Positions 22,510 through 52,999 of a stretch of 52,999 nt of DNA are shown here, piece after piece. The stretch's first letter is position 1, and every line of letters begins with the position of its first letter. Source of the stretch: a virus (Duplodnaviria > Caudoviricetes). Location: the IMG/VR virus record IMGVR_UViG_3300025127_000052, positions 1-52,999 of that record; one strand, 5' to 3'. A program made the position numbers and the translations under genes. The notes under the pieces are model-generated. The model did not search any database. It saw only the letters and a program-made list of their open reading frames with translations, and was not told where the DNA came from.

Positions 22510-22518
22510 ATAAATAGT
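22510..22518 (-). promoter_or_regulatory. candidate late-promoter motif ACTATTTAT
   Basis: The same 9-mer occurs in five intergenic regions of the structural module. Confidence 0.6.
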
Positions 22519-24251: not shown

Positions 24252-24260
24252 ATAAATAGT
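24252..24260 (-). promoter_or_regulatory. candidate late-promoter motif ACTATTTAT
   Basis: About 21 nt upstream of the tube ATG, followed by GAGGAG. Confidence 0.6.
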
Positions 24261-27336: not shown

Positions 27337-27345
27337 ATAAATAGT
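27337..27345 (-). promoter_or_regulatory. candidate late-promoter motif ACTATTTAT
   Basis: Intergenic, upstream of the sheath gene. Confidence 0.6.
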
Positions 27346-30053: not shown

Positions 30054-30062
30054 ATAAATAGT
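30054..30062 (-). promoter_or_regulatory. candidate late-promoter motif ACTATTTAT
   Basis: About 21 nt upstream of the neck gene ATG. Confidence 0.6.
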
Positions 30063-32005: not shown

Positions 32006-33733
32006 TTAACCAGCGACATCGGATACCATATCTGCGCAGACTACTAGTCCGTACATGTCAGGACGTACCATCTTCTTGGCGTAGCGAGTCATGACTCCCT
32101 TACGAGGTACGAAGTCCTCGGTACCAAAAATGGTAGGTGTGACTTGTAGTGGGACATAAGGAGCGTAGACATATCCACTTTCGAGGAAGCTAGCACCCTT
32201 GCGACCTACTAGTAGCAAGTTACGTGGGAAGTAAGGATCGACGTGAATGTCCATCTTACGACTAATGGAACCTACATTCATGACGCCCCAAGAGCCATCC
32301 TTGTCGTCTACAGCGACGGAAGCACGGAAACCGGAGGTGAATTCAAGAATGTTAGCTACTTCTGGGGAGCAAACTAGGAAGTTAGCACCACCACGTAGTG
32401 TCTTACGGTGAATACGAGCACTTACTTCGTTGACAGTTTCAAGAAGTGTTTCATACCATTCGGAGACAGTACCTGTGAAGTCAGGGTAGTTTACACCAGC
32501 AACAGGAGCACCTGTTTCACGGTTGAGGAACTTACCTGGGCTACGTGACCAGTAAAGCTTACCAGCAGTAGCACCCTTAACAAGGTCTTCAAGGATCTCT
32601 TGATCGATTTCAAGAGCAACCTGCTCGGACAAGATGCTTGTCAACTCAACTTCAGCGTCGAGGTTGTGATAAGCATTCAAATCTTGAGCTAGTTCTGGTG
32701 ACCACTTAGCTTTGAGCTTCTTGGTCAACGCTGTAACAGCCACGGAATCGACCTTGATGTCAATTTCTGGGATAGCTGCGTTGTTCTCAAGACCCCAAGG
32801 GGTAGCACCTACGACAGAGCCGATAGAACTGCCCTGATTGAAGACGTCCACGATTGGGAATGTGAGACCAGTTGTAACTTCTACAGAAGCACTCAACTGA
32901 TCAGGGGTTGCTGTGGAAGCAAAGACCATGTTAAGTGTTGTTTCGCTAGAACCAGAGAAGTCGGTCAAGCGACGTACTTGGAAACCATCTTTGACCAAAC
33001 CACCAGCAGCAGTACCACTGAGGACAGTCATAGCAACTAGATCGTCCATGTTTTGGTTTGTTTGTTTCTCCAGGGTACCAACAAGATATGTTGTTGTACC
33101 AGAGATGAAAGATGGATCAGCACGCAAAATGGTGAACAAAGATCCGCCTGGGCGGGTTTGAGTATCACCATATGTACCAGAAGCCTGAATTGTAACTACG
33201 CCACCAGCAACTGTTACTGATGCTGTTGGACTAGCGTAACCGTTGTTCAAGGTGTAAGCTGAAAGCTGACCATTGTTGTCAGCCAAATCAATACCACCTG
33301 TGATTTGAGCACCGACTTTGCCACCACCGTAAAGTGAGGTACCAAGACGCTGAGCAAGACGGTCACCGTTGGCGTTGGCGCCGTTGTTACCGTTTTCAGA
33401 ACCAAAGGTGAAATCTAGGAAGAAGATTAGACCGCTTGGTAGGGACATTGGTTGAACGGATACAAGATCCTGAGCCAATAGTTGACCGAATACACGGCGA
33501 ACGATTGGGAAAGCAACTGCGGAGAAGCCTTCGACATCTCCACCAGACATTGTGCTGGTTTCTTTTAGAAGCTGAGCAGCTTGGTTTTCTAGAAGACGAG
33601 CCATGTTAGAACGACCGTTGTCGTCAAGACCCTCTAGAAGACCTGTACGCTCCCACTTCTCTAGTAGAGCTTCACCTTCATTGGCAAGAGAGCGTGCTCT
33701 AATACCTTCGGTGAGTTGGTTAAGTACAGACAT
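32006..33733 (-). CDS. major capsid protein, copy 1 (T4 gp23-like)
   Basis: Same gp23 motifs as copy 2; directly follows the scaffold gene. Confidence 0.95.
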   Translation of the reverse strand: MSVLNQLTEGIRARSLANEGEALLEKWERTGLLEGLDDNGRSNMARLLENQAAQLLKETSTMSGGDVEGFSAVAFPIVRRVFGQLLAQDLVSVQPMSLPSGLIFFLDFTFGSENGNNGANANGDRLAQRLGTSLYGGGKVGAQITGGIDLADNNGQLSAYTLNNGYASPTASVTVAGGVVTIQASGTYGDTQTRPGGSLFTILRADPSFISGTTTYLVGTLEKQTNQNMDDLVAMTVLSGTAAGGLVKDGFQVRRLTDFSGSSETTLNMVFASTATPDQLSASVEVTTGLTFPIVDVFNQGSSIGSVVGATPWGLENNAAIPEIDIKVDSVAVTALTKKLKAKWSPELAQDLNAYHNLDAEVELTSILSEQVALEIDQEILEDLVKGATAGKLYWSRSPGKFLNRETGAPVAGVNYPDFTGTVSEWYETLLETVNEVSARIHRKTLRGGANFLVCSPEVANILEFTSGFRASVAVDDKDGSWGVMNVGSISRKMDIHVDPYFPRNLLLVGRKGASFLESGYVYAPYVPLQVTPTIFGTEDFVPRKGVMTRYAKKMVRPDMYGLVVCADMVSDVAG

Positions 33734-34791: not shown

Positions 34792-34800
34792 ATAAATAGT
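34792..34800 (-). promoter_or_regulatory. candidate late-promoter motif ACTATTTAT
   Basis: Intergenic, upstream of the scaffold-capsid operon. Confidence 0.6.
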
Positions 34801-39972: not shown

Positions 39973-40786
39973 CTTCTTGATATTCTCTTACAAGTTTTTG
40001 AAGCTTCAAGATTTTTAGAATCTCTCGCTCCGTTAAACGGGCAACATTATATTCGGACAGTTGGGCAAGAACTTTTTTAGTACTATCCACCATTTCGGGA
40101 TCTTCTTGAACTTCCTGCAACTGGAGTGAGTTCTCTACCATCTCATATATTCTCTTTAACTCCGAGCCGGCGTAAGTCTTAAAGTCAGCTTCATTTTCGT
40201 TGAACGAAACAATAAACTTAGTTAGTAATTTTTTCTGTTCAGGGAGCAATTCTGAATATGTCTCATTGAATCGATCTGTGAATGATTTAACCACCAAATT
40301 ATCAACTGGCTGCATCTGTTCTTGTTCTTCAACGTCACTGGTTAAGGTGTCAACAATCTTCTGTTCCATGATAACTCTTGACTTAACAGGTAGCTTGTTG
40401 CCAAATATCTGTGCCAAAGTAGCATAAGATTTGTAATCTGGGACGAAGTTGTTATAGACATCCTTGCCTAGCTCAGTGTTGATCTTTTTAATAACACTGG
40501 ACTGTTCTTTGAATATATCCTGCTGGTTGAGGGTCTCGTACTCTTTCTTGGCCCTAAAGATCATCTTTTCGGCGGTGTAACGGTCAAACTTGTCTTCTTC
40601 AGCGAGAGCGTTAAAGCAGCCCAATTCACTAAAGAGTACCATACCACTCCGAAAATGTTCTTTCAAAATCTTTTTGATTTTCTGAGAACGGGTCGCATTC
40701 TGCTCTATAACCGCTTTAGTCAATTCTTTTACCAAAGCTTCATAGAGGAAAGCGGTGTTTCTTTTCTTATTATGCTTGACCTTCAT
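39956..40786 (-). CDS. hypothetical head-module protein following portal
   Basis: MKVKHNKKRNTAFLYEALVKE; helical. Confidence 0.7.
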   Translation of the reverse strand: MKVKHNKKRNTAFLYEALVKELTKAVIEQNATRSQKIKKILKEHFRSGMVLFSELGCFNALAEEDKFDRYTAEKMIFRAKKEYETLNQQDIFKEQSSVIKKINTELGKDVYNNFVPDYKSYATLAQIFGNKLPVKSRVIMEQKIVDTLTSDVEEQEQMQPVDNLVVKSFTDRFNETYSELLPEQKKLLTKFIVSFNENEADFKTYAGSELKRIYEMVENSLQLQEVQEDPEMVDSTKKVLAQLSEYNVARLTEREILKILKLQKLVREYQEDANND

Positions 40787-42653
40787 CTTTTGTTTCCAAT
40801 TGTTTTATTAGTTGCTTGATACTAAACTGAGTTTCAAATAACATCTCTTCTTCTGATTTTTGTGCTTCGCTATGAATTCCGTTAGAAAGGGAACTCATCT
40901 CTCCATACCCTTTAAATAGTGCACGACGAGACGAACCTGCCCCTTCTCTATTATAAGAACCGTTCATGCTGCGGCGGCGGGCACCTTGTTTCCACTTAGG
41001 ACTTTTAACGTACATGTATCCGTTATCATTTCTTTGCCCTGGTTCAATATCGGGTTCAGCAAGAAGTGGTCCTTCATCGGCGGGTTCCTCGGCAGCGGGT
41101 TCATCGCCCCCTCCAAGGTCGTCGCCACCGAGGTCATCACCAAGCTCGCCGCCGAGATCGCCACCTTCCCCGCCTTCAGGTACAGTCCCGGCCTCTTCAA
41201 TAGCAGCACCCTGAAGGGCGTCTGTAAATTGCTCGACCTGAATTCTGTCGATTTCTTCTTCGGAGATTTTGAAGATGTTTCGGTATACCCACTGCTTAGA
41301 AAAATATCCATCAGTAGCGCTACCAGCGACATCAAACTTGGTTCGCATGTGTTCTAGCTCTTGAAGCTCGGCGATCTTAGATGGATTATTGAGAGACAGC
41401 TTAAATGACAAAAGATCATTGTTTCTGTACCCCAAGGTAAAGAGATGAATAATACAAATCTTTTCTAGTTCGGCAATGACAACTCTCTGTAGTCTTTGAA
41501 TGGTGCGAGCAAATCGAATGTCCTTTTGAGATAATGTTGTCTTGTCTTCCTGAGCATCTGATTGTGCTAGGTAAGCCTTTGGTACCTTAAGGGCTGAGAA
41601 AAGTTTATCACGAAGATAGTTCACATCATCAATATCACCAGTGAACTGACCACCTGCCAGGGTTTCGATTCTTGTGTTACTAGCAGCACCACGAATAGGA
41701 ATGTAAAAATCCTCATCTACACTCATGGCATTGTATCGCAAATCAACTCGTCCACTATCTTCATCTACAATTTGATTGCGCTTCATTTGTGTTTTGACTT
41801 GTTCGATGTATTGTTCCACATCTTCTGCAGCCATGTTACCAACATCAATATAGAATACTCGCCGCTCTGGTGAGCGAACAATACGATAAGCCATCATCGC
41901 ATCTTCTAAGAGTGTAAGCTGTCGCCAAATACGGCGAGAGGGCTCTAGGACCGAAGTGCCATAGGGAACATATTTATCATTTCCTAAAACACGGAAGTGA
42001 GAGACCTGCCAGTTTTCAAAGGTAACACCTTTGTTGCCGTCGGCATTCTGCCAAAAAAACTGAACATAGTTTGGGTTTGTAGGATCTGTACCCTCAATTC
42101 TTTCCATTTCTCGCACAGGCAACGGTATGACATTAGTAATGCCAAGCTTCTCATCAATATCAAGATACAGATAGTAGTCACCATACTTACAAGCACTACG
42201 AGCCCAGCCAAATAGGTTTGCCTCAGAGTTAAGAACATTGTACAGTAATGTATCTAGAATATCTTTAATTTCCCTGTTGTGACAATCAATATTAATCAAA
42301 GGATTAAATGCCGTAGAGGTGGTAATCTCATCAGCATAAATATCTAGAGCGGAAGCAATCTCAGGCATGTATTCCATTTGTTCAAAGTCTGTGTATCGCA
42401 TCTGCTTGTTGCGATTATACAAAACTTTATTTGTTAGGTCCCCAAATGGATTGAAATACTCTTTCTTTTTAAACTCCCGACCAGTGCTTGAGGTAAAGGT
42501 ATATTTTGTGATATCACGGCGGCTGCCACGTACCACAGATGGTCGATCATAGTCCACAATAGGGCCACTAAATAAACGAGTCAGTCTCTTAAACAGAGCG
42601 GACTGATTATTTCTGGGGTTGTTTGCGTTGTTGTTATTTTGATTGTCAGCCAT
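40770..42653 (-). CDS. portal protein (T4 gp20-like)
   Basis: PEIASALDIYADE, LEDAMMAYRIVRSPERRVFYIDVGN, EDFYIP and ALKVPKAYL. Confidence 0.95.
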   Translation of the reverse strand: MADNQNNNNANNPRNNQSALFKRLTRLFSGPIVDYDRPSVVRGSRRDITKYTFTSSTGREFKKKEYFNPFGDLTNKVLYNRNKQMRYTDFEQMEYMPEIASALDIYADEITTSTAFNPLINIDCHNREIKDILDTLLYNVLNSEANLFGWARSACKYGDYYLYLDIDEKLGITNVIPLPVREMERIEGTDPTNPNYVQFFWQNADGNKGVTFENWQVSHFRVLGNDKYVPYGTSVLEPSRRIWRQLTLLEDAMMAYRIVRSPERRVFYIDVGNMAAEDVEQYIEQVKTQMKRNQIVDEDSGRVDLRYNAMSVDEDFYIPIRGAASNTRIETLAGGQFTGDIDDVNYLRDKLFSALKVPKAYLAQSDAQEDKTTLSQKDIRFARTIQRLQRVVIAELEKICIIHLFTLGYRNNDLLSFKLSLNNPSKIAELQELEHMRTKFDVAGSATDGYFSKQWVYRNIFKISEEEIDRIQVEQFTDALQGAAIEEAGTVPEGGEGGDLGGELGDDLGGDDLGGGDEPAAEEPADEGPLLAEPDIEPGQRNDNGYMYVKSPKWKQGARRRSMNGSYNREGAGSSRRALFKGYGEMSSLSNGIHSEAQKSEEEMLFETQFSIKQLIKQLETKDEGQA

Positions 42654-42655
42654 GA

Positions 42656-44227
42656 TTATCCTTTAATGATCCAATTTAGGTCGTGAGTTTTTCCATCGTT
42701 GCCTTTAAAGGTTGTCTTTTGTCCCTTAAAGCCATGTTGTCCATATATCTTAGTATTAAGTTTGGTAGACGATACGGATATACTCGTTAATAGTGCCTTT
42801 TTGTAATCTGCCTCCCGCTGGTTTGCCGTTAAGGCTGTTCCTCTTACCCAGCAACCAATACAAGCCGCAATCACCAGGTCGTCGTTGTAACTCCTCATGG
42901 CTTGCGGTCTTCCGTTGTGCCATACAAATGTTTTGATTTCATTCGCAAGTCGCACGGAATTAATAGTAATTAGTTTATTTCTGACGAATTCTTCAAACTT
43001 CGCAATAACAAGTGGTCTAGTTTTCATAGACATCGTAAAACCAGCCACCCCTCCGAGAGCATGAGCAGACACTTCATCAACATATTCATGTGTTGATTTT
43101 ATACTATAATACAAATTTTTATAGTCTAAATCTTGTAGTCGGGTTAGGACTCCGATACCCAATGAGTTGTTTTCTATAATCAACAAAGCATTATTGTACT
43201 CAGAAGCAATGGAATAGAGCAAAGGAGCAAACATATCAGGAGTTATTTTTCCCTGATATTCCGCTACCTGGGTCATACTCTGGACATCAAACACATGAGC
43301 AACACTAAAATCTGAACCGTCTCCACGAGCAACGTCAGCCACTAAAATATATTCACTATGCGGATTAGGTTCTTGCCAGATCCAATAATTACGATCAAAC
43401 CCTGTCTGATGTTTAGGATCGCTTATGTTTTCAAGTATAAGTTTGAGGTCATCCCCGTGAACCACTGTATCGCCTGAAGCGTTGAAGTTACATTCAAGTT
43501 CCTGTGCGATCTCACGACGTGACATGTTTCTAGTTTCTTTTTCAAACCATGCCTGGTCTCGCTCTGGGTGTACTTGCCAAGGTAGACGAATAGTGTGGAA
43601 ATCATTCTTACCCTCTTGTGCCTCTGTATAAGTTTTATGAAACCAATTACCAACACCATTAGGAGTAGACAAAGCGATACAACGACCACCAGTAGATAGC
43701 GTAGGGTAAAGACCAGCCCATAGCTCGTCAATGCCCTCAACAAAAGCCGCTTCGTCGATTACCAACAAAGACAAAGCTTCTGAACGTCCTGCGTCGCCAG
43801 ATGTCGAGGAAGCTTTGACCATCGACCCGTTTGAAAGTTCGAAAGAGTTCCTGTTGTCAATAGCGATATCAGATATTTTCAGCCAAGGCGGAAGATTTTT
43901 ATGTATTGCCTTGATCTTTTTTACAAGATTAGCCGCAGTTCCAAGCTTAGTAGCAACCACCAGGACATTCTTGTCTTTATGGAATAACATAAGCCACGCC
44001 ACATAAGCTGCGACCGTAGTTGAAATTCCTAGCTGGCGGGCCTTTAGAATTACGCTAAATCGGTTTTCTTTAAAATCTGTTAGAGCTTCCTCCTGGAAGT
44101 CATAAAGATCAAAAGGTATAGAGCCCCTCATGGGGTGAGAAATTTTTGCGTACTTTTTACAGAAGAAAGCAGGATCCTTACCGCAGCGGACGATCTCCGC
44201 CATCATTTCCTTCTTGTTCAGAGACAT
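42656..44227 (-). CDS. terminase large subunit (T4 gp17-like)
   Basis: LYDFQ, KARQLGIST, IDEAAF, STPNG, ADVARGDGSDFS and DDLVIA. Confidence 0.95.
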   Translation of the reverse strand: MSLNKKEMMAEIVRCGKDPAFFCKKYAKISHPMRGSIPFDLYDFQEEALTDFKENRFSVILKARQLGISTTVAAYVAWLMLFHKDKNVLVVATKLGTAANLVKKIKAIHKNLPPWLKISDIAIDNRNSFELSNGSMVKASSTSGDAGRSEALSLLVIDEAAFVEGIDELWAGLYPTLSTGGRCIALSTPNGVGNWFHKTYTEAQEGKNDFHTIRLPWQVHPERDQAWFEKETRNMSRREIAQELECNFNASGDTVVHGDDLKLILENISDPKHQTGFDRNYWIWQEPNPHSEYILVADVARGDGSDFSVAHVFDVQSMTQVAEYQGKITPDMFAPLLYSIASEYNNALLIIENNSLGIGVLTRLQDLDYKNLYYSIKSTHEYVDEVSAHALGGVAGFTMSMKTRPLVIAKFEEFVRNKLITINSVRLANEIKTFVWHNGRPQAMRSYNDDLVIAACIGCWVRGTALTANQREADYKKALLTSISVSSTKLNTKIYGQHGFKGQKTTFKGNDGKTHDLNWIIKG

Positions 44228-44803
44228 TTAGCCCTCTGGCGTTTCTGGGTTCTTCTTAGCCTTGTCGTTAGAAGCCTTTTTAGCCTTGGCTGTTTCAAAG
44301 AAGTCCTTAAACTGTTGATGATAGTCTTTATGGCGACGATCGGCAGCACGAGTTGACCCCATGCGAAGTGCCTCAACGCCATCAAAACCACCAATTGCGT
44401 ACTGCTTCTTAGCCTGAACCCAAGTGTGATTACGAGATGTGGTCTGTACCATTATGTCGGTTTGAGGTGAGTCGTCCTCTAATGTTACAGATTCTTTAGT
44501 AATCCCTTTGTATTCTTTCTTAAGGAACTTAATAATATCTCCAAATTTAGCTTCGATTTCGTTTTCAAACTTATTACGAGGATGAAGATCCTCAACACGC
44601 ATTTCAGCCTGATATGTGACGATCATTTTAGGACCGGCAAAACGTACTTTGAAGCCATCAATAAGACGACTGTCGATAATTGGATGTCCCTCTTCTCGGT
44701 TCAAACCAGTCTGTAGGTTTTCTCCGTTTTCGTCCAAAGCACCGTCATAGGCATTAGCCGCTGCCTGGTTCAAACCTTTAATTACATCTAGGACACTAGC
44801 CAT
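44228..44803 (-). CDS. hypothetical protein upstream of terminase
   Basis: 191 aa abutting terL; SD AAGGAG. Confidence 0.65.
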   Translation of the reverse strand: MASVLDVIKGLNQAAANAYDGALDENGENLQTGLNREEGHPIIDSRLIDGFKVRFAGPKMIVTYQAEMRVEDLHPRNKFENEIEAKFGDIIKFLKKEYKGITKESVTLEDDSPQTDIMVQTTSRNHTWVQAKKQYAIGGFDGVEALRMGSTRAADRRHKDYHQQFKDFFETAKAKKASNDKAKKNPETPEG

Positions 44804-45225
44804 TATTTTCTTCTCCTTAAGGCATATTCAATATGCTCATCTGTTGGTCGCTCGCCGTTCTTCCATGCTTCTTCACGATATTCGATGAAATCTATATAAC
44901 AATCGTAACAGCATTTAAACCTATTCATATATAGGTCGTCCTTCCTGGAAAATGAATATGTTTTACAGACCGGACAAGTGCGGTCTTGTTTTTGGCGTGC
45001 TCTTCTTTTTGTAATCTTAATATCGCCTACGGTAATCTCATCTTGCTCTTTGGATAATTGATCTGACTTAATGCGCATTTCCCGAAGCTGATTAAGGTAA
45101 TCTTTTTCTTTTCCCTCTTCCCATTCATTGCGGAAATCCTGAACCGTATCCTTTCCGTATTTCTCGGCAATCGCCTTCTCTACGGCGGCGATGGTATTTG
45201 GATCTTTTCTAGTTTTTAACTTCAC
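44803..45225 (-). CDS. hypothetical zinc-finger protein
   Basis: Likely GTG start overlapping the upstream TGA; CPVC...CCYDC. Confidence 0.6.
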   Translation of the reverse strand: MKLKTRKDPNTIAAVEKAIAEKYGKDTVQDFRNEWEEGKEKDYLNQLREMRIKSDQLSKEQDEITVGDIKITKRRARQKQDRTCPVCKTYSFSRKDDLYMNRFKCCYDCYIDFIEYREEAWKNGERPTDEHIEYALRRRK

Positions 45226-45596
45226 TGGTTGACCGCCTTGACAATAGCTATGGTTGTACCTACTCCGATTACTAGTCCGGACAATATTCCAATAGCTCCC
45301 TTGTTTCGGCGAAGCCAAGTATTATCTTTTTTTATGGTCTCTTGTAAGTCCTTGATAGATGATTTGTATGTGTTTTGTAGTTGGATACAAACTTTTCTAT
45401 CAACGTTACACTCAGCTATCTTAGCGTTGGTGTCAATTTTGTACTGTAGGAGCTTGCGAAAATCTTCTTCGCTAAGTAGTATCCCAACATATGTGTCGGA
45501 ACCTTCCTCAACTGCTGCTGGACGAGGTTTGAATTCAGTGACCTCGCCCGCAGTAGCAGTAAGAGAAAGCATCAATATTATAACCAATATTCTCAT
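45222..45596 (-). CDS. secreted / membrane coiled-coil protein (spanin-like architecture)
   Basis: Signal peptide (ATA|G), coiled coil and C-terminal transmembrane segment; no lipobox Cys. Confidence 0.55.
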   Translation of the reverse strand: MRILVIILMLSLTATAGEVTEFKPRPAAVEEGSDTYVGILLSEEDFRKLLQYKIDTNAKIAECNVDRKVCIQLQNTYKSSIKDLQETIKKDNTWLRRNKGAIGILSGLVIGVGTTIAIVKAVNQ

Positions 45597-45597
45597 T

Positions 45598-46734
45598 TTA
45601 TTTCTTTAGAAACTTTTTAAGACCCTCGATACGTTTTGCTGGGCGCTTCAGCCCACTGACCAGGGTGTAAGTTACAAGCTTGTCCTTTTTATCATCCTCA
45701 TAAATGCCACGGTGAACCATGGCACCACCAGTCAAAGCAGCCAATGTATCGAAACCAAATTCAATGTTATCCATCAAGCCAACAGTCTCTTCAAAGATCT
45801 CTTCGCTACCAACAACAATACAAGCAGCACCTGTAGCAGTTGTCAAGTCGAAACCTTCAGCAAGAAGTGTTTTCTCTAGATTCTTTTTAAGAGCACTGGA
45901 GACAGCAGTTTCGTTTTCAAGGTTCTTAACGCTGGTAACACCCATAATCATACAGCCTGGTTGTTTCATAATACTGTCGTAATCAGTAGCATCAAAGGTC
46001 GTGTATTCTGAGTCTTGGTTTGCCAGGACGTTGAAGACATGAAACAAGCCGGCGACTGTATTGTTGATTGTTGTCCAGAACTTTTTGACTGTGAGTTTTG
46101 GATATAGTTTTTTAATCTTTTCATTGTCCACCATAATAAGGGGAGCAATCTTTCCTTTTTCTGCGAGCCCGCAAAGTTGGGTGATGCGAGCATGAGCATT
46201 CTTGGCTACCGTTGGGGAAGCTGATTCGCCAGCAGTTGGAAGGGAAGCAATGACACCAACACGCTCATCAACGTTCTCAACGCCGATGTAGGTAAAGTAC
46301 TTCTTGGCTACTTTGATCAGAGTGTTGACTGTGCCGCCACCTGAACCGCCAGATACACCAAGACAAATCAAGATGCGATCAACGTTGCTGCCGAATACTT
46401 CACGGAATTTGTTGAACACTTCTTGTTCTTTGCGCTCAATAGCTGCTTCGGCTTTGGCTTGGTCTTTACCAGCACCTTGGTCGCCGTGCTCATCCACCAA
46501 AAACTTTTGTTCTTCAGGGATGTCAAGACCATTAAGATCAGAGCGGGCAGTGTTGACTGCTAGCATTTTTGTATAGCCCATGTCATAAAATGCTTTAGCA
46601 ATGCGTCCGCCGCCTTGACCAGCGCCGACAATGGCATAAGTTAAAGCACCACCTGATTTGTCTTCAACCGTTTCCTGTTCCTCGTTGAGGTCTGGATCGT
46701 AATCTTCGATGTCTAGTGTAGGAATGTCTACCAT
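45598..46734 (-). CDS. tubulin/FtsZ-family GTPase (PhuZ/TubZ/CetZ-like)
   Basis: IVGAGQGGGRIA, AVNTA..DL, GAGKD, GVSGGSGGG, LP..GE, VDN and T7-like FDATD. Confidence 0.9.
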   Translation of the reverse strand: MVDIPTLDIEDYDPDLNEEQETVEDKSGGALTYAIVGAGQGGGRIAKAFYDMGYTKMLAVNTARSDLNGLDIPEEQKFLVDEHGDQGAGKDQAKAEAAIERKEQEVFNKFREVFGSNVDRILICLGVSGGSGGGTVNTLIKVAKKYFTYIGVENVDERVGVIASLPTAGESASPTVAKNAHARITQLCGLAEKGKIAPLIMVDNEKIKKLYPKLTVKKFWTTINNTVAGLFHVFNVLANQDSEYTTFDATDYDSIMKQPGCMIMGVTSVKNLENETAVSSALKKNLEKTLLAEGFDLTTATGAACIVVGSEEIFEETVGLMDNIEFGFDTLAALTGGAMVHRGIYEDDKKDKLVTYTLVSGLKRPAKRIEGLKKFLKK

Positions 46735-46747
46735 TTTACTAGTCTCC

Positions 46748-47062
46748 TTATAAATCTAGTTCTTCGTGTAGTCTAATTAGAGCCTTTAATCTTTCTTCAC
46801 GATCTTCAATCTTTTTTGTTTCATTGATTTTGCGATCGTAGATTTTCTTAATGGCTCCAATCTTATCTTTTTCTAGTGTAGCACGAATTTCGTTTTCTTT
46901 AATAGCTGCTGTAACATTTGCTTGTACAGCCTCTAAAAGACGAGTCTTATTCTTGGTTGGTCGAATTATATTGTAGAGAAAAACAATCATCCCTAAACCC
47001 ATTACAACCACAAAGATAACCTTCCAGGCTCCTTGTTTTATTTTTAACCATAACCAATTCAT
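46748..47062 (-). CDS. N-terminal membrane-anchored coiled-coil protein (i-spanin-like architecture)
   Basis: One N-terminal TM helix followed by a charged coiled coil. Confidence 0.55.
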   Translation of the reverse strand: MNWLWLKIKQGAWKVIFVVVMGLGMIVFLYNIIRPTKNKTRLLEAVQANVTAAIKENEIRATLEKDKIGAIKKIYDRKINETKKIEDREERLKALIRLHEELDL

Positions 47063-47250
47063 TTACCATGCTTCCAAGTGGCAGCAATATCAGCAGCGCC
47101 CTGTAAACCAATGTAAGCTAAAGACACAGCAACCCAATCGCTGCTAGTCAATGAACCTACTGCTAAAAAAACCGTGGCTGTACCCCAAACAATAAGCTTG
47201 CGAGAAGCCCACTTTCCAAGTGCTTTATCAATTTTTTCTTGCATAGTCAT
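47059..47250 (-). CDS. putative holin
   Basis: 63 aa with two TM segments; SRKLIVW and YIGLQG; two Met at the start (MTM). Confidence 0.6.
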   Translation of the reverse strand: MTMQEKIDKALGKWASRKLIVWGTATVFLAVGSLTSSDWVAVSLAYIGLQGAADIAATWKHGK

Positions 47251-47272
47251 AGCACCTCCTCAGTAACTATAA

Positions 47273-47476
47273 TTAGTTCTGGGGATTTCTTTTGGCTCGT
47301 TGATGAAGTTGTGTATCGCTCGCACGAACACGAATAACCTGTCCATTGTAACTTACTGTTGCAACTTTTTCCCAAGTATGATATTCTAGCAATAGACCAA
47401 CCTTCCACTCAGAATATACTTTTGGCGTGCCGTGGAATGTACACTCTCTAAATCTTATAAGATCTCCAGCCTTCAT
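47273..47476 (-). CDS. small hypothetical protein, MKxGDL-type
   Basis: 67 aa, coupled to the upstream ORF. Confidence 0.55.
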   Translation of the reverse strand: MKAGDLIRFRECTFHGTPKVYSEWKVGLLLEYHTWEKVATVSYNGQVIRVRASDTQLHQRAKRNPQN

Positions 47477-47670
47477 GCTCTTGAGACCACAACCAAATCT
47501 TTTTCATGAATTTCATATGATCCCACGAGTCCGTAGCTGAGTTCCCACTCTTCAGCACACCAACTAACAACCCAATGCTCAGGTGTCGAGTGCTTACTTA
47601 TAATGAGTCCGTACCCTCCCGAACCATCAGGATCGAATATGTTACTTTGTACCAAATCGCCTGGCTTCAT
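47473..47670 (-). CDS. small hypothetical protein, MKxGDLV-type
   Basis: 65 aa, SD GAGG. Confidence 0.55.
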   Translation of the reverse strand: MKPGDLVQSNIFDPDGSGGYGLIISKHSTPEHWVVSWCAEEWELSYGLVGSYEIHEKDLVVVSRA

Positions 47671-48115
47671 ACTTCCTCACTCTTCGCAAAAACACTTGTT
47701 GATTGTGTTCAGATTTCATTGAACTTATTTCGGTCGTAGGACAATTTAAAGATTGATGCATGGGCGCTTTCATAGTTGATCCACGATCCTTTACACCAAC
47801 AGACAAACCACAAGATGGTGAATTGGCTATGCCTATAAATCCTACAACATCATCATATCTTGTAGATAGTTCTTGACACTTACCCTTAAGGCTAGAATAT
47901 ACTTCCTCTTTTCCCATAATTGCCAAAACTTCGTCACCTTTTTGACGCAGGCGAATTGATTTTCTTGGAGTACCAAACAGTTCATGTTCAGGACAAATCG
48001 GAATAAGGTCAAAATTATTCTCTTCAGCCCACTTTTTAATCTCGTCACTGTGACGATTCGTTCCGTTCCACCTTACATTTTTTCCAAACACACAGGCGCT
48101 TATCAATATTTTCAT
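47642..48115 (-). CDS. DUF523 / 2-thiouracil desulfidase (TudS)-like protein
   Basis: ILISAC..G.NVRWNG, PICPE, GTPR and SPSCG. Confidence 0.8.
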   Translation of the reverse strand: MKILISACVFGKNVRWNGTNRHSDEIKKWAEENNFDLIPICPEHELFGTPRKSIRLRQKGDEVLAIMGKEEVYSSLKGKCQELSTRYDDVVGFIGIANSPSCGLSVGVKDRGSTMKAPMHQSLNCPTTEISSMKSEHNQQVFLRRVRKYEARRFGTK

Positions 48116-48606
48116 TTTACATTTAAATATTTTCTATAAGTTGTTGGTAGGTTATCGTAGTATGTTGTTTTTTGTAGAGCCCTATGAGACCGACTAAGAT
48201 GATCTGTATAAGCCATGTTAATCAAAAAACAAGGAGCCTTGGATCTTGGATTGTAACCCTCTACCTCCAGATCATCATTTGGGTTAAAACACAAAGCAAG
48301 AACATTACCATTACCACTCTCTTCTAGAATAATATTAATAAACTCTTGGTACCCTTTTGTTTCCGTCTTTTTGACATCTGTATTTGGCTGGGCTATCAAC
48401 GCACTCCTTTTTCCAGAACGTATAAATCGGAGGACAACATCCATAAGCGTGTCTTTTGGTGCTTCAAAAATATCCAAGTGAAGTTGGTCTGCTAGTCTGT
48501 CAGCCTTTACAAAAGGGCAGACTGCGAATCCTGAAAACTCGGGACGCTTTTCTTCTAGGATATTGATGACGTAATCAGTCATCTGTTTTATTAATTGTTC
48601 CCTCAC
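48112..48606 (-). CDS. DUF1415-like protein
   Basis: GFAVCPF, FNP.D and AP.FLI. Confidence 0.5.
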   Translation of the reverse strand: MREQLIKQMTDYVINILEEKRPEFSGFAVCPFVKADRLADQLHLDIFEAPKDTLMDVVLRFIRSGKRSALIAQPNTDVKKTETKGYQEFINIILEESGNGNVLALCFNPNDDLEVEGYNPRSKAPCFLINMAYTDHLSRSHRALQKTTYYDNLPTTYRKYLNVK

Positions 48607-49046
48607 TTTTTAATTCCTTCAACATAATATACTGATTCGCACATATAAAGCTGAGCATAGTTTATGGCTTGGAGCCTTAGCGAGCCGAACACCATATCTG
48701 GTTGATCTTGATGACTGGAGATGATCCAGTCCATTTGCATCTCCCAGAAAGCAGCATCGTTACAATCAAAGTTGGTTCTGGTGGTACAACTGTTAGGTTC
48801 CCAATTACTAACGTTTAGAGAGCAACCAGCCTGATCGTCGGGTGGCATCGGGGCTCCATCAACCAACTCGGTTTCTATAGATTCCCATACCCTACCACAG
48901 TCACCGCCGTGTTGTGTGAGCCGTAGTTCATAAAGTCCATTCTGCGTATCTTGTCCAACAACACAGTCTCGCTCTTTGGCATCGCCACACGCAACTAGTA
49001 ATATAATACAAGCAGCAATTTTATTGATTGACATAAGCATACCCAT
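48603..49046 (-). CDS. Cys-rich lipoprotein
   Basis: Lipobox LLVAC followed by several further Cys. Confidence 0.6.
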   Translation of the reverse strand: MGMLMSINKIAACIILLVACGDAKERDCVVGQDTQNGLYELRLTQHGGDCGRVWESIETELVDGAPMPPDDQAGCSLNVSNWEPNSCTTRTNFDCNDAAFWEMQMDWIISSHQDQPDMVFGSLRLQAINYAQLYMCESVYYVEGIKK

Positions 49047-49060
49047 TTTTAATAGTCATT

Positions 49061-49831
49061 TTAATTGGATCGTCTTCGTCGCCAAACCCTCATAGATTTA
49101 ACAGGTGAATTCCACACACCAGGAATTCCTTTGGTCCAACGATTGAGATCAAGAGTGTCTCTAAATATATCAACGCAACGACCACAGAGTACCTTGCCTG
49201 ATCCTATTCCTTTTTTGCTCATGTTTTGAAAATAAGCATTGGGATCTCTTTTTTGAGACGTTTTTTTATAACACAGTCTACAATGCCCAGCCCCATTACA
49301 AGATTTAAATTTTGACATTTTTTTAGGAGGTACTACTTTATGGAACTCATGATGACACTCTCGGCACAACAAAACAAGGTCACTCATCTTTTCAACAAGA
49401 AGCCGCTGGTAAGTCCTGTGATGTACTTGGTTTGCTTCTTTTGATCCACATACCTCACAACAAGGATTCTTTTTTAGGTTTATAAATTTTTCTCGTTTGC
49501 GTTGCCACATCTTACTTCTCATATATTCTTTATGAGTCATTTGATTCATAACTTCTTGCATCTCAGCTTCTGTGATAATATGATCCTTTTCATTTGGACC
49601 TGCCATTACAATTTTTAATTGATGTTCTGCGAGATGATCTTCTTTTGTCTTTTTAGTCTTGATAGTTTTTATTTTTTCGGGCGGCTGCTTTTGTGCAAGC
49701 CTGGCAGCCTCTATTTGCTCTTCCATAGCAGCCGACTCTCGTTGACGTCGTTCTTTGGATTTACGGCACCTTCTTCGTCTTAGTGCGCTACTGTGATACA
49801 TAAGCATACCCATCTTGACGTTCAATGTCAA
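49061..49831 (-). CDS. HNH endonuclease with extra zinc-finger motifs (start uncertain)
   Basis: CEVCG...VHHRTY...DLVLLCRECH..FH; CRLC and CGRC. Confidence 0.75.
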   Translation of the reverse strand: MTLNVKMGMLMYHSSALRRRRCRKSKERRQRESAAMEEQIEAARLAQKQPPEKIKTIKTKKTKEDHLAEHQLKIVMAGPNEKDHIITEAEMQEVMNQMTHKEYMRSKMWQRKREKFINLKKNPCCEVCGSKEANQVHHRTYQRLLVEKMSDLVLLCRECHHEFHKVVPPKKMSKFKSCNGAGHCRLCYKKTSQKRDPNAYFQNMSKKGIGSGKVLCGRCVDIFRDTLDLNRWTKGIPGVWNSPVKSMRVWRRRRSN

Positions 49832-52800
49832 TAGTCATATCGGCAATATCTTTGAGACTATCCAAGTGTGTAATCAAAAGCACAGTCTTGTAGTAACCCT
49901 TGATCATTTCCATCACTCGCATAAAGCCTTCAAGGTTTTCGGCGTCCAACGCTGTGCCTGGTTCGTCCATAATCATAATGTCTGATTTTGGTAGGGTTGA
50001 TACATTAGTCAGGGCAATACGAATGGCAATTGCTGCCAGCGTCTTCTCTGCTCCAGAAGCCATCTCTAAAGGTCGTGCTTCGTACTTTGGATGCTTGATG
50101 AAGATGTCTAGCTTATTCTTTTCTGCCTCGAAGAAGATATCAAAGTCGGTAACGTTGGCCAGCACTGTGCTAACCTCTTCGTTAATAAGAGGGAGCATCC
50201 GCTTCACAACATCATAGCTGATTCCGTTACTGTGGGTACAACGCATGAATAAATCATAGGCAGCGTATTCTGTACGCAAATCTTCAAGCTCTTGCTTTTT
50301 AGCCCGGAGATTAATAATCTGTTGCTCAATGCCACCGTGCTGCTTAATGAAGTCCATGATCTTGGCTTCACAAATAGACAACTCGTTCTCGGCTAGCACT
50401 TTCTGATCAGCTAGATCGGACTGTTCTTGAATAAGCTCCTCACGGTTCTCAATAGCTTCTTTGTTGTCTTCGTAAGTCTGGATCCGTTCGGAAGCAGTCT
50501 TGATATCATTAGTAAGCGTATTGATTTCATTGTTTGTTTTTTCTACCAGCAAATCTAGGCTGGTTGCTTCAGTTGACAAATCTCTCTGCTTTTCCAGAAG
50601 TTTCTCGTACTTTTCCTTCTGAGAACGTAGACTATCAACGTTCATCTCGGACAGTGTTTCGTTCCTTAATCTAAGGTCAGTCTGAAGATTGTAGATTGTA
50701 ATCCGAGCCTCTGACAATAACTGCTTTGCTTCATAAGCATCTTTGATATACTTGCGCAGACCACAGTCAGGACCGCAGGGTACTTCGTCCAGTACGCTTA
50801 GCTTTTTCTCATAAGTCTCTTTGTTACGAGTCTCGATCTTAAGACTTGTCTCTAGTTCTCTAATTTCTTCCTTGATAGTCAGAACTTCAGCGATCTTAGA
50901 TTCTAGAGCATCACTATCATACTCAGACAAAAACTCCTTGATATTAGCTAGTTTGTCTAGAATCCGCTCTTTCTTTGTTTGTGCGCCGGCGATGCGGAGT
51001 TCGCAGTCTTCCAGTTTCTTAGTTGCTTTTGTGAGTAGCTTGTTTTCCTTTTTGATATTAATAATCTCAACAGGAGCAGCAGCAAAGAGGCTTTCTATTT
51101 CATCGACACGGGCAGTAATTTTGTTTAGTTTATTCTTAAACTTTTTACAAGCCTTCTCTTGCTTTGTCTTTTCAGTCTCGTTGTTCTCTAGTTGAGTCTC
51201 AAGGGTAACAATGTCCTCATCAAATGTGTTGTCTTCCAGCTTCTTGAGCAAGGCACGAGTCTCTATGCTATCACTCTTAGCAAGCTTAAACTTCTTATCA
51301 AATTGATCAAGGTCTAAGAACTTGGCTAGGATTTCTTTACGCTTGGTCGAACCCTCGTTGATAAATGTCATCGCACCCATCTGACTGGACATGCTGGTCA
51401 GTAAAAAATCATCAAGACTACCGAAGATCTTACGGATGGCTTTGTCTGTGCCATTGCGATCCAGTGAGTTCATACTGACTTCTTCATCAGTAGCTGGATC
51501 AATCATCGTAAACTCTACGTCGGTCTTAGCCTCTTCTGTTTCTTCGCCGTGAAGCTTTTTAGTATACTTTTCAGACTTACGCTCAATGATATATGTTTTA
51601 CCCGCAACATCAATCTCAACTCGACCACAACCTGATGATTTATTCTGATTGATAATATTCAGATTCTTACGATTATTCTTGCTGATAGAATTATAAATTG
51701 TGTATAGCGCACTATCAATAATAGAGCTTTTGCCCGAATAGTTCTTTCCAAAGATCCCGACGACGCCGCTAAGCTTTTCGAAGTTTACAGTATTCGCTTC
51801 TCCATAATTAAAGAGATTGTCAAACTGCATGTTCTTTAGCGACCACTTTACATTACGATGACTTGCGTCTTCGCCATTGACTCGGGCATCATATCTGGAA
51901 TTAAGTTGGAAGACTTTTTCCAAGGTCTTGGTGTCAGGTTCATACTCTTTTAAGTATTCCCGTATAAGTCGTTCTTGGACTTGCGGGTCACGAAGATTCT
52001 CTGTGCTGCCCAGATCATCCACATCTACACTAGATCGCTTGAGTCCAGCTTTATTGACAAAAGATAAACTCTCAGGCTTAAATCTGCTTTTAGCAGTATC
52101 CATCACACGTCGAATCTTATCTAACGATACTTTATGATGAGTAACAATACGCAGGCGGCAACCCTCTTGAATATCCAAGTTGCGTGGCATGTTACCTTTG
52201 GGTGTAAGCTCAATCGTAGTGAATGGCTTAGGATTCTCTAGGACGTGGTGGTTGACCTCGTAATTGGTCTTGTCCTCAATATCCCAAATCAAAAAGCCCT
52301 TGTCGTTTGTCTCGCCGTGATTCTGCTGAATAGTAGAGCCACAATAGCGAATTGTCCCTGAGTCATTGAGACACTGATTAGTCTTGTGGATATCTCCAAG
52401 GAACGCATAATCAAACTTATCAAAGACTGAAACGTCATGGTCGCCGTGGTCCATAATCCAGCCAAGGTCTGTTCGGCTGTTATTGACTGCGCCGTGATAC
52501 AGAGCGATATTGATGCGATCAGTATCTGTCGGATCGGTCCAGTTGGTTTCATCAAAGACCGATAAGACGTTTAGTGTAACGTTATGATCTAATTTTACTT
52601 CCCCTGAAAACTTGTGTAGGTGAAGGTCTGGATGATCCAAGGCATCCACAATTGGAGTGATGGCGTCCTGGCGAGTGCTGTTTCGCAGGTTGCCGTCGTG
52701 ATTGCCCAAGATGATATGAGTTGGAGCGATGTCTGCTAGGTTCTTTAGGAACTCTGTAGCCAACTCAAAGTACTCTGGTGAAAGCTGTGTCTTTGTGTGG

Positions 52801-52940
52801 GCTAGATCGCCGCAGTGGATAATGTAGTCCACGTTCTGCTCTCGTAGCATTTGATAAGCTTGTTCAAAGACTTTGCGATACTCGTAGTGATATTTAAGGT
52901 TCTTGATGTGAGTATCACCAAAATGTGCGAGCCGTACCAT
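49788..52940 (-). CDS. fused Mre11/SbcD nuclease and Rad50/SbcC ATPase (T4 gp47+gp46 equivalent)
   Basis: DTH, GDLAH, GNHD, HG and GDIH; then GKNYSGKSS, coiled coil with PCGPDC, SGAE, MDEP..ALD and ITH. Confidence 0.9.
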   Translation of the reverse strand: MVRLAHFGDTHIKNLKYHYEYRKVFEQAYQMLREQNVDYIIHCGDLAHTKTQLSPEYFELATEFLKNLADIAPTHIILGNHDGNLRNSTRQDAITPIVDALDHPDLHLHKFSGEVKLDHNVTLNVLSVFDETNWTDPTDTDRINIALYHGAVNNSRTDLGWIMDHGDHDVSVFDKFDYAFLGDIHKTNQCLNDSGTIRYCGSTIQQNHGETNDKGFLIWDIEDKTNYEVNHHVLENPKPFTTIELTPKGNMPRNLDIQEGCRLRIVTHHKVSLDKIRRVMDTAKSRFKPESLSFVNKAGLKRSSVDVDDLGSTENLRDPQVQERLIREYLKEYEPDTKTLEKVFQLNSRYDARVNGEDASHRNVKWSLKNMQFDNLFNYGEANTVNFEKLSGVVGIFGKNYSGKSSIIDSALYTIYNSISKNNRKNLNIINQNKSSGCGRVEIDVAGKTYIIERKSEKYTKKLHGEETEEAKTDVEFTMIDPATDEEVSMNSLDRNGTDKAIRKIFGSLDDFLLTSMSSQMGAMTFINEGSTKRKEILAKFLDLDQFDKKFKLAKSDSIETRALLKKLEDNTFDEDIVTLETQLENNETEKTKQEKACKKFKNKLNKITARVDEIESLFAAAPVEIINIKKENKLLTKATKKLEDCELRIAGAQTKKERILDKLANIKEFLSEYDSDALESKIAEVLTIKEEIRELETSLKIETRNKETYEKKLSVLDEVPCGPDCGLRKYIKDAYEAKQLLSEARITIYNLQTDLRLRNETLSEMNVDSLRSQKEKYEKLLEKQRDLSTEATSLDLLVEKTNNEINTLTNDIKTASERIQTYEDNKEAIENREELIQEQSDLADQKVLAENELSICEAKIMDFIKQHGGIEQQIINLRAKKQELEDLRTEYAAYDLFMRCTHSNGISYDVVKRMLPLINEEVSTVLANVTDFDIFFEAEKNKLDIFIKHPKYEARPLEMASGAEKTLAAIAIRIALTNVSTLPKSDIMIMDEPGTALDAENLEGFMRVMEMIKGYYKTVLLITHLDSLKDIADMTIDIERQDGYAYVSQ

Positions 52941-52971
52941 AGACGAACTCCTCCTATAGTTTTCCAGAACT

Positions 52972-52999
52972 ATTGTATCAGGTATATTTTAGTTGTAAA
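52972..52999 (-). promoter_or_regulatory. sigma70-like promoter
   Basis: TTTACA-N16-TACAAT with extended TGn; SD AGGAGG downstream. Confidence 0.6.

Follow-up and report, generated by a model that had tools for sequence, protein, structure and literature searches.

Phage tubulins have so far been understood in two settings: PhuZ, which builds spindles in nucleus-forming jumbo phages, and TubZ, the motor of plasmid-like prophages. In the accessible text of Iyer et al. (2021, PMC7824862) two kinds are recognised, PhuZ-type and TubZ-type, and in that of Weinheimer and Aylward (2022, PMC9123017) tubulin appears only in the PhiKZ-like marine group. Here we analyse a tubulin gene that fits neither setting. 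It lies on the minus strand of a viral record from IMG/VR (52,999 b; this whole stretch is called the window below), in a lytic-type, T4-related marine virus; it has none of the accessories of TubZ, and it is more strictly conserved than the terminase. Its 378-residue product represents a third kind of phage tubulin, from a family that is shared by marine phages and one Planctomycetota lineage and stands apart from both plasmid TubZ/RepX and PhuZ. The explanation that we favour, which we hold to be moderately probable as a whole, is that the window is part of the roughly 180-190 kb genome of an uncultured marine myovirus related to T4 ('Far-T4'-like), and that a phage GTPase of TubZ fold was inserted there into an older gene cassette and would form a cytoplasmic filament late in infection.

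A phage tubulin of TubZ-like fold

The original prediction, made from the letters of the window alone, was that the gene encodes a tubulin/FtsZ-superfamily GTPase. Four approaches (Pfam, PDB phmmer, AF2 and Foldseek) agree that it is a genuine and intact member. The protein matches the Pfam families Tubulin (PF00091; 37.1 bits, cut-off 33) and TubZ-like_C (PF22453; 30.3 bits, cut-off 26). Among sequences in the PDB, phmmer ranks RepX first (4ei7, E 4.3e-11), followed by Bacillus thuringiensis TubZ (3e-7), CetZ (4e-7), and FtsZ (about 1e-5). The AlphaFold2 (AF2) model, built from 93 sequences, has a pLDDT of 95.5 and a pTM of 0.92; confidence is 75-80 over the first 20 residues and 87-96 in a short C-terminal helix (residues 366-375). 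The predicted structure is the two-domain tubulin fold joined by a core helix. When this model was compared with the PDB, Foldseek returned at least 500 matches at E <= 0.001, and those listed are all TubZ, CetZ, or FtsZ, with TM-scores of 0.78 for TubZ 2xka (E 2e-22), 0.75 for B. cereus TubZ, 0.73 for CetZ, and 0.62-0.68 for FtsZ.

The sequence motifs of the superfamily are also in place: the nucleotide-binding loop and the T7 loop, whose acidic residues complete the active site of the neighbouring subunit. In the glycine-rich nucleotide-binding loop (Table 1), G129, G130, G132, and G134 are invariant or nearly so. In the T7-loop-like segment, D248 is invariant and D251 nearly so in one alignment (A1), and D248 is nearly invariant in a 93-row alignment (A3). 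The two ends of the protein are as first described: it starts with MVDIPTLDIEDY and finishes with ...IEGLKKFLKK.

By both sequence and structure, the best match is TubZ/RepX of the Bacillus-type type III plasmid and prophage partition systems (PDB 2xka, 3m89, 4ei7), with which the phage tubulin shares the TubZ-like_C domain above cut-off, the glycine-rich loop, and the T7-type acidic residues. However, identity is only 20-27% (22-27% to the closest plasmid proteins, which are Bacillales TubZ-like). With 378 amino acids, the phage tubulin is about 70 residues shorter than the plasmid proteins (446-451 amino acids), has no long C-terminal tail, and carries an acidic N-terminal peptide absent from the three plasmid proteins checked; moreover, its gene lies in what is probably a late structural operon of a lytic-type myovirus. 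There is no TubR-like adaptor gene beside it, its neighbours being membrane proteins without a helix-turn-helix family, whereas a small open reading frame (ORF) of 92-116 codons lies directly upstream in all three of the Bacillales plasmid loci fetched. Nor did we find a tubC-like centromere: there is no tandem repeat in 42000-50000, and 44000-49200 holds no iterons, only short, scattered matches in two or three copies.

PhuZ of the nucleus-forming Chimalliviridae is likewise a phage-encoded tubulin-superfamily GTPase, and its role in organising the cell serves us as a working analogy. The structural match is weak, however (TM-scores of 0.53-0.58, 11-15% identity), and on account of this poor match we rejected the identification with PhuZ. 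Among 50,697 phage records, tblastn with the tubulin (E <= 1e-3) found no PhuZ-bearing phage, only Bacillus phage G (two records, 20.3% identity, E 1e-5). The genomes differ as well, the window being T4-like rather than chimallivirus-like, and the acidic handle is N-terminal here but C-terminal in PhuZ.

FtsZ, CetZ, and FtsZl1 (Tubulin_2) share the superfamily fold. Unlike FtsZ, the phage tubulin has no FtsZ_C domain, with no match even at E <= 10, and its conserved peptide is N-terminal, not C-terminal. FtsZl1/2 were described by Makarova and Koonin (2010, PMC2875224), and in the accessible part of that paper FtsZl1 lacks the T7 and C-terminal elements. We rejected membership in this 'membrane remodelling' family because Tubulin_2 (PF13809) scores 16.1 bits, below its cut-off of 27, and because the phage tubulin has both the T7 loop and the C-terminal domain.

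The acidic N-terminal peptide is a distinctive feature. To score it we used one fixed pattern, [ILVMF]P.[ILVMF].[ILVMFP][EDQ]..[EDQKS], which is present in 18/18 other phage rows and 53/66 planctomycete rows (cut ORFs account for several of the misses), but in 0/3 plasmid TubZ rows and 0/1 phage G row. In a broad alignment that reaches down to 29% identity, only 16 of 93 rows have the peptide. Within the window's own clade (80 IMG/VR loci recruited through tubulin peptides; 87 marine viral stretches were confirmed by tblastn), the major-residue frequency is 0.95 in the peptide, which is as conserved as the core, and 0.89 in the linker (residues 13-30), the most variable part. Judged by this pattern, the peptide is a trait of the nearer members of the family. 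The original prediction had heard in it an echo of the C-terminal DIPxF peptide of FtsZ. Mimicry of the FtsZ tail is not supported: the peptide is common to the chromosomal homologues of Planctomycetota and is therefore a family trait rather than evident mimicry, and three genomes of such carriers contain no FtsZ-strength match.

The family is large and unstudied. An exhaustive profile-free search yields 904 clusters (50% identity) at E <= 1e-3; the number falls to 494 at 1e-10 and to 219 at 1e-30. A word-indexed search, in which 8,000 candidates were scored, lists 638 proteins at E <= 1e-5, many of them from marine surveys. Some members are labelled 'cell division GTPase FtsZ' by JGI, and the best Foldseek match among viral models carries a similar name ('FtsZ cell division GTPase' of an uncultured Caudovirales, BFVD A0A6J5RW92; E 9.6e-34, 27% identity). 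Full-text searches of the literature turned up no paper that describes either the phage family or its planctomycete relatives, although paper supplements could hold members. The accessible text of Santana-Molina (2023, PMC9871819) has no phage or planctomycete TubZ-like group; its supplement could list members.

The closest cellular relatives are bacterial. In a scan with one genome per species, 55 loci (L098-L152) encode full-length relatives that are 45-52% identical to the phage tubulin over their whole length, N-terminal peptide included. Nearly all are metagenome-assembled genomes (MAGs) labelled Planctomycetota (Phycisphaerae, Sedimentisphaerales, Anaerohalosphaeraceae, 'Pirellulales'). 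In contrast to the phage gene, these are cellular genes in chromosomal, housekeeping neighbourhoods (glycolysis, his, ilv, cysS, groEL), often as tandem paralogues: the profile finds the tubulin ORF in 49/55 loci, with a second paralogue within two genes in 15/49. Many have Lys-rich or Cys-containing N-terminal extensions. Examples of the planctomycete genes lie at L109:6001-9038, L118:4300-7158, and L110:5425-8288.

In the three carrier genomes searched, no Tubulin match reaches FtsZ strength; the best (E 1e-12 to 7e-9) are all these same genes. This agrees with the accessible text of Rivas-Marin (2020, PMC6952346), according to which ftsZ is absent from Planctomycetes. The family is patchy in the phylum, being present in 2/301 genomes across Planctomycetota and in 26/151 of the order of one carrier. 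The planctomycete TubZ-like tubulins are therefore put forward as candidate cytoskeletal proteins of FtsZ-less bacteria; for some of these bacteria they offer a concrete candidate for division or DNA segregation.

A quick maximum-likelihood tree was also built. Its 89 rows comprise the window with 3 of its 80 clade loci, 15 rows from other phages, 66 from MAGs, 3 from plasmid TubZ, and phage G; any row with fewer than 250 matched profile positions had been removed beforehand, uncounted. All 19 phage rows fall in one clade (SH-aLRT 99), together with one contig binned as Thermoplasmatales. When the tree is rooted on the long-branched outgroup of plasmid and phage G proteins, this clade lies among the planctomycete rows. 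We read this branching as pointing to a single origin of the phage tubulins; with such long outgroup branches and a quick tree method, transfer may have run in either direction. The exceptional contig (L145:5992-7119, binned as a Thermoplasmatales archaeon MAG) is probably viral and mis-binned.

Conservation of the tubulin and independence of its cassette

Read along the minus strand from 47277, the window presents a promoter-like motif, three genes for small membrane proteins with the tubulin between the second and the third (TM63, TMCC104, tubulin, SPCCTM124), then ZN141, g191, the large terminase (TerL), and the portal. As first noted, the four leading ORFs are tightly packed: TM63 and TMCC104 overlap by ATGA, 13 nucleotides separate TMCC104 from the tubulin, and a single nucleotide separates the tubulin from SPCCTM124. 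Downstream, SPCCTM124 and ZN141 overlap by GTGA, and ZN141 and g191 by TAATG. Wherever the contigs of the clade reach far enough, the arrangement is the same, with TMCC104 adjacent upstream in 67/67 loci, TM63 present in 62/62, SPCCTM124 within 120 nucleotides downstream in 79/79, and ZN141, g191, and TerL in order in 77/77. The three long relatives each hold exactly one tubulin copy.

Within these loci the tubulin is the most conserved of the products compared. Its median identity to the window is 93% (range 84-100), followed by TM63 (85%), TerL (82%), portal (74%), g191 (60%), SPCCTM124 (59%), ZN141 (56%), and TMCC104 (52%); tubulin identity exceeds TerL identity in 75/78 loci. Nei-Gojobori distances, computed for 10 of the 80 loci, give a proportion of synonymous differences (pS) of 0.47-0.82 for the tubulin and a proportion of nonsynonymous differences (pN) of 0.007-0.108, compared with a pN of 0.049-0.262 for TerL. 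The resulting dN/dS is about 0.006-0.03; in L003, the protein is 99% identical at a pS of 0.61 (dN/dS 0.006). High pS with low pN therefore indicates strong purifying selection and not merely recent transfer. Given the pS of 0.47-0.82, we rejected the idea that a recent horizontal sweep alone produced the conservation.

The tight packing had led to the proposal that the tubulin and its membrane-protein neighbours form one device, a membrane-tethered filament. Comparison with relatives outside the clade does not support such a unit, because the cassette and the tubulin each occur alone. L157 (G004), a 162-kb record that is 89% complete and was located via the TerL of the most divergent clade member, encodes in order a TM63 homologue (E 2.5e-20), a 136-residue transmembrane (TM)-coiled-coil protein, a 150-residue protein that bears a signal peptide plus a C-terminal TM segment, a ZN141 homologue (2e-33), a 602-residue protein, a g191 homologue (E 5e-34), and TerL. 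The second of these genes overlaps the start of the third (junction L157:3785-3788), and the 150-residue protein scores 11 bits against SPCCTM124 in a 3-sequence search. Tubulin is absent from this locus and from the whole 162-kb record.

Two further genomes tell a similar story. L158, a 192-kb record with terminal repeats that is 100% complete, has a two-TM gene, a TM-coiled-coil gene, an unrelated 156-residue ORF (L158:2003-2473) that belongs to no known family, and an SPCCTM124 homologue (E 5.7e-6); its g191 homologue scores E 4e-33. In the cultured Microcystis phage Mel-JY01, which has no tubulin, a 121-residue TM-coiled-coil gene and a 124-residue signal peptide-coiled-coil-TM gene abut directly before TerL, and a two-TM gene and a zinc-ribbon gene lie further upstream; the likeness to the window is architectural only. 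The junction between the two coiled-coil genes thus has the look of a cargo slot, empty in L157 and Mel-JY01, occupied by the 156-residue ORF in L158 and by the tubulin in the window's clade.

Conversely, 11 of 14 further marine phage loci (L084-L092, L096) encode tubulins 64-69% identical to the window's in other surroundings, where the neighbours are a small basic protein, a ClpP-like and a PhoH-like protein, and cytidylyltransferases. Searches of these loci with profiles found no homologue of TM63, TMCC104, SPCCTM124, ZN141, or g191; run against this 64-69% clade and the loci of Flavobacterium phage immuto and Mel-JY01, the flanking-gene profiles gave only chance-level matches at E <= 1. 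In the 64-69% clade, the tubulin is followed, directly or after one or two genes, by a small and strongly basic protein whose tail is Lys-rich, often with a ClpP-like protease next (Table 1). In the three long relatives of the window (G000-G002), this basic-protein family gives nothing at E <= 0.1.

Since the cassette is found without the tubulin (L157, L158, Mel-JY01) and the tubulin without the cassette (L084-L092, L096), the cassette appears to be older and independent, and the tubulin a single-gene insertion between its second and third genes. Adjacency and translational coupling are here the mark of an insertion hotspot, not of a protein machine. Conservation of the tubulin's position thus holds for its own clade and breaks down in L157, in L158, and at the loci of the sister tubulins. 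The predicted topologies also leave little for a cytoplasmic filament to touch: SPCCTM124 would be almost wholly extracytoplasmic, with a 5-residue tail, and TM63 would expose about 18 N-terminal residues. If TMCC104 is inserted N-in, its helical domain would be periplasmic.

L158's 192-kb record also contains a 305-residue ORF between gp32-like and DNA-polymerase-like genes (L181:1126-2043, minus strand) that matches the tubulin profile weakly and partially (22 bits, over profile positions 157-231). Glycine-rich motifs can be seen in it by eye, and it has no Pfam match; it may be a very divergent tubulin-like protein of the replication module.

Probable late expression and proposed role of the tubulin

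Five exact copies of ACTATTTAT occur in the window, all on the minus strand and all in intergenic gaps before structural genes; these are probably the phage's late promoter core. Ahead of TM63 lies a variant, ACTAATTAT, followed by a GAGGAGG ribosome-binding site. The one-mismatch class to which it belongs is barely over chance in the window (21 plus 5 exact, 26 in all, vs 16.0 +/- 3.6 expected), and the variant at 47269-47277 therefore proves nothing alone. Its position, however, is conserved. Of the 52 distinct sequences found ahead of the TM63 homologue in relatives, 48 have an ACTA(A/C/T)TTA element at -45 to -10, in the forms ACTAATTA (19), ACTACTTA (16), and the canonical ACTATTTA (13), and the remaining 4 have none.

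Because the element is kept in relatives, we take the late-type promoter position as real and 47269-47277 as a putative promoter. Terminators between the genes show no excess (6 found vs 6.0 expected). The gene string thus reads as what would be a single late, translationally coupled operon driven by a promoter of the ACTA(A/T/C)TTAT type. The variant late motif of the original prediction, which is not significant within the window, gains its weight from the relatives, and late expression of the tubulin is probable, the motif being common with the structural genes and kept in the clade.

In the explanation that we favour, the tubulin would most likely bind and hydrolyse GTP and would assemble head-to-tail into cytoplasmic filaments late in infection. 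Their task would be to organise the infected cell: they could, for instance, position phage DNA or the sites at which heads are assembled and packaged. The acidic N-terminal peptide may serve as a handle for self-contact or for a partner, replacing the C-terminal tail of TubZ, PhuZ, and FtsZ. If filaments do form, cytoskeletal organisation of infected cells would be far commoner among ocean phages than the phage-nucleus lineage suggests. A more ambitious joint reading seems to us unlikely to be right in all its parts: that lytic T4-like marine phages that form no nucleus build their own cytoskeleton from this third class of tubulin, of TubZ fold and with an acidic N-terminal peptide as its assembly or adaptor handle, made together with the packaging genes in order to organise head assembly or DNA packaging, and that the planctomycete sisters, as tandem chromosomal pairs in FtsZ-less bacteria, are part of a long-sought cytoskeleton for division or segregation.

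Several observations weigh against the favoured explanation. Its polymerisation step is suggested by family membership, and the cellular job of the filament is a guess. None of the 24 runs listed as holding a stretch of the window is an RNA run. Because the loci were recruited by tubulin peptides, the identity comparison is skewed in favour of conserved tubulins; the tubulin pS is also somewhat below that of its neighbours, so that part of the apparent conservation may come from recombinational spread or codon constraint. With respect to the cassette, the L157 record is 89% complete and a tubulin may lie in the part that is missing. Within its own clade, moreover, the tubulin never leaves the cassette, and profile searches of relatives' loci detect no TMCC104 homologue in tubulin-less relatives or anywhere outside the tubulin-bearing clade. 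A partnership between tubulin and TMCC104 is therefore conceivable, and it may be a feature specific to the clade.

In the model of the original prediction, the membrane proteins, all three of them, hold the filament at the inner membrane, where it would serve to arrest division, traffic procapsids, or lyse the cell by a non-canonical route. Several facts speak for it: throughout the clade the genes keep a strict order and are translationally coupled, the C-terminal part of the clade-specific TMCC104 (about 45 residues) is conserved, TM63 keeps a median identity of 85%, and T4-type proheads start on the inner membrane. We nevertheless regard tethering as very unlikely given that L157, L158, and Mel-JY01 have the cassette without a tubulin, that the 11 other phage loci have the tubulin without the cassette, that TM63 and SPCCTM124 have homologues in tubulin-less phages, and that the inferred topologies leave SPCCTM124 almost wholly outside the cytoplasm and only some 18 residues of TM63 within it. 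The flanking genes taken by themselves could be a lysis or envelope module, a holin-like gene plus a spanin-like pair, into which the tubulin landed by chance; this would be compatible with our explanation, and we rate it as possible but rather unlikely. The architectures fit (TM63 as a small membrane protein resembling a two-TM holin, TMCC104 with its TM segment and helical domain resembling an i-spanin, SPCCTM124 resembling a unimolecular spanin), the two coiled-coil genes abut in L157 and Mel-JY01, and the slot takes differing cargo. Yet the flanking proteins have no lipobox Cys, no match to a holin or spanin family, and no adjacent endolysin; a fold search with the low-confidence SPCCTM124 model found 0 matches at E <= 0.001, Phage_lysozyme and Amidase_2 were not found in 3/3 related records, and membrane-bound prohead initiation or superinfection exclusion would fit equally well.

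Two other readings concern the tubulin itself. It could stop host division late in infection, by poisoning or copolymerising with a host tubulin-family protein or by showing its N-terminal peptide to a host receptor. The peptide does resemble a DIPxF-type tail, and copolymerisation is conceivable if the host is one of the Planctomycetota in which the closest cellular homologues (45-52%) are chromosomal, these bacteria being ftsZ-less in the accessible text of PMC6952346. But FtsZ structures are distant (16-21% identity in the Foldseek alignments listed), the peptide is common to the planctomycete homologues and so predates any mimicry, and the family is rare in Planctomycetota (2/301 and 26/151 genomes) compared with 87 marine viral stretches and 7 metagenome runs, all of which makes this quite unlikely. 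More remote still is the idea that the tubulin works as a TubZ-type (type III) partition motor, by which the phage genome would be segregated in the manner of a plasmid-like pseudolysogen: although no family comes closer in sequence and structure than plasmid TubZ/RepX, the gene has no TubR-like neighbour, such as the small upstream ORF in 3/3 Bacillales plasmid loci, there are no repeats in 44000-49200, the protein has 378 rather than 446-451 residues and no long C-terminal tail, and it sits in a probable late structural operon of a T4-like virus. On balance, then, we retain the explanation of an inserted TubZ-fold GTPase acting as a late cytoplasmic filament; of the original interpretation, the real tubulin, the probable late operon, and the clade-fixed position survive, and the unit with the membrane proteins is not supported.

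Flanking genes and genome setting

Table 1. Positions of the tubulin gene, its motifs, neighbouring genes, and promoter-like elements (window coordinates unless a locus is named).
Feature	Position	Strand	Remarks
Tubulin/FtsZ-superfamily GTPase, 378 aa, TubZ-like fold	45598..46734	-	Pfam, PDB phmmer, AF2, Foldseek
Acidic N-terminal peptide MVDIPTLDIEDY, conserved	46699..46734	-	followed by a more variable linker, residues 13-30
Glycine-rich nucleotide-binding loop GGSGGGT, residues 129-135	46330..46350	-	aligned to RepX/TubZ loop
T7-loop-like FDATDY, residues 247-252, acidic D248 and D251	45979..45996	-	aligned to RepX/TubZ T7 region
Late-promoter-like motif ACTAATTAT	47269..47277	-	1 mismatch to ACTATTTAT; 19 nt upstream of TM63 ATG
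Exact copies of ACTATTTAT	22510-22518, 24252-24260, 27337-27345, 30054-30062, 34792-34800	-	gaps before structural genes
TM63, 63-aa small membrane protein, first cassette gene	47059..47250	-	basic N-terminus, two hydrophobic segments
TMCC104, 104 aa	46748..47062	-	N-terminal TM helix (about residues 16-32), helical charged C-terminal part
SPCCTM124, 124 aa	45222..45596	-	signal peptide without Cys, periplasm-facing part, C-terminal TM anchor, 5-residue tail
ZN141, 140-aa zinc-ribbon protein (CxxC ... CCxxC)	44803..45225	-	putative GTG start overlapping the previous stop
g191, 191 aa, directly before large terminase	44228..44803	-	no PHROG family
Large terminase (TerL), T4 type	42656..44227	-	Pfam Terminase_6N E 9.5e-11; phrog_2 E 4e-52
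Small basic protein (possible adaptor)	L085:3535-3774, L086:7177-7437, L088:7964-8194, L096:7282-7518		after tubulin

The membrane genes resemble lysis genes in topology and little else. TM63, called holin-like in the original prediction, has the size and topology for that label (one segment over the hydropathy threshold, the second weaker) but matches no Pfam or PHROG family, holin families included. Its homologues are 68-100% identical in 65 relatives. In the ESM Atlas it falls into its own viral clusters only; the nearest named clusters score 0.76-0.81, and the Dp1-holin cluster only 0.76, which we treat as leads only. TMCC104, whose last 45 or so residues are highly conserved within the clade, has weak matches to phrog_1009 (E 5e-4) and DUF6693 (below cut-off).

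In SPCCTM124 the periplasm-facing part is modelled as a beta-hairpin and two helices with two conserved Cys, at low confidence (AF2 pLDDT 70.7, pTM 0.28), and this was the model that found 0 matches at E <= 0.001 in the BFVD fold search. The first 25 residues, signal peptide included, contain no Cys and so no lipobox, in agreement with what was noted at the outset; the 17 aligned homologues are alike in this, apart from Cys residues within the hydrophobic core in a few of them. Nor is there a recognisable endolysin, as had also been remarked: no endolysin family was found among the 23 window proteins scanned, which are not every ORF, and the two families tried in three related records, Phage_lysozyme (PF00959) and Amidase_2 (PF01510), gave 0/3 each.

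On the packaging side, homologues of ZN141 upstream of TerL account for 12 listed matches in relatives' loci (E <= 2.3e-9). From its position, g191 is a candidate small terminase or packaging factor. Across the distant relatives L160-L173, a zinc-ribbon protein and a small protein always lie between the SbcCD-like gene and TerL, with profile matches down to E 2e-12 for ZN141 and from 2e-4 to 8e-3 for g191; the pair are candidate packaging accessory and small-terminase genes.

The window's completeness is estimated at 29%. Nearly all its long ORFs are on the minus strand, and a tRNA search of the window found none. Its structural genes follow the T4 type and encode a large terminase (Terminase_6N), a portal (phrog_213), a prohead protease, a pair of gp23-like capsid proteins, and a tail sheath. 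Among cultured phages, the window is closest to Flavobacterium phage immuto, with 44.8% identity in TerL, to Microcystis phage Mel-JY01, with 44.3%, and to Rhodothermus phage RM378; megablast of 40000-52999 against phage records gave zero matches. The likely genome size follows from related contigs of 171.9 kb (60% complete by CheckV), 178.6 kb (98%), and 190.5 kb (100%). At least half of the sampled window words were found in 7 marine metagenome runs from 5 studies.

Some other genes of the window deserve mention. The two gp23-like major head proteins are adjoining paralogues of 575 and 583 residues (32006-33733 and 30151-31902), each with a long N-terminal part outside the phrog_138 match. 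The region upstream of the cassette contains small ORFs and the genes for a fused SbcCD-like nuclease/ATPase, a 2-thiouracil-desulfurase-like protein, and an HNH protein. The desulfurase-family gene (47642-48115; PF04463 67 bits, cut-off 34.7) is just upstream of the cassette. In T4, the counterparts of the SbcD- and SbcC-like domains are separate proteins, gp47 and gp46; in the window, a single ORF of 1050 residues (49788-52940) fuses an Mre11/SbcD-like phosphoesterase domain to an SbcC/SMC-like ATPase.

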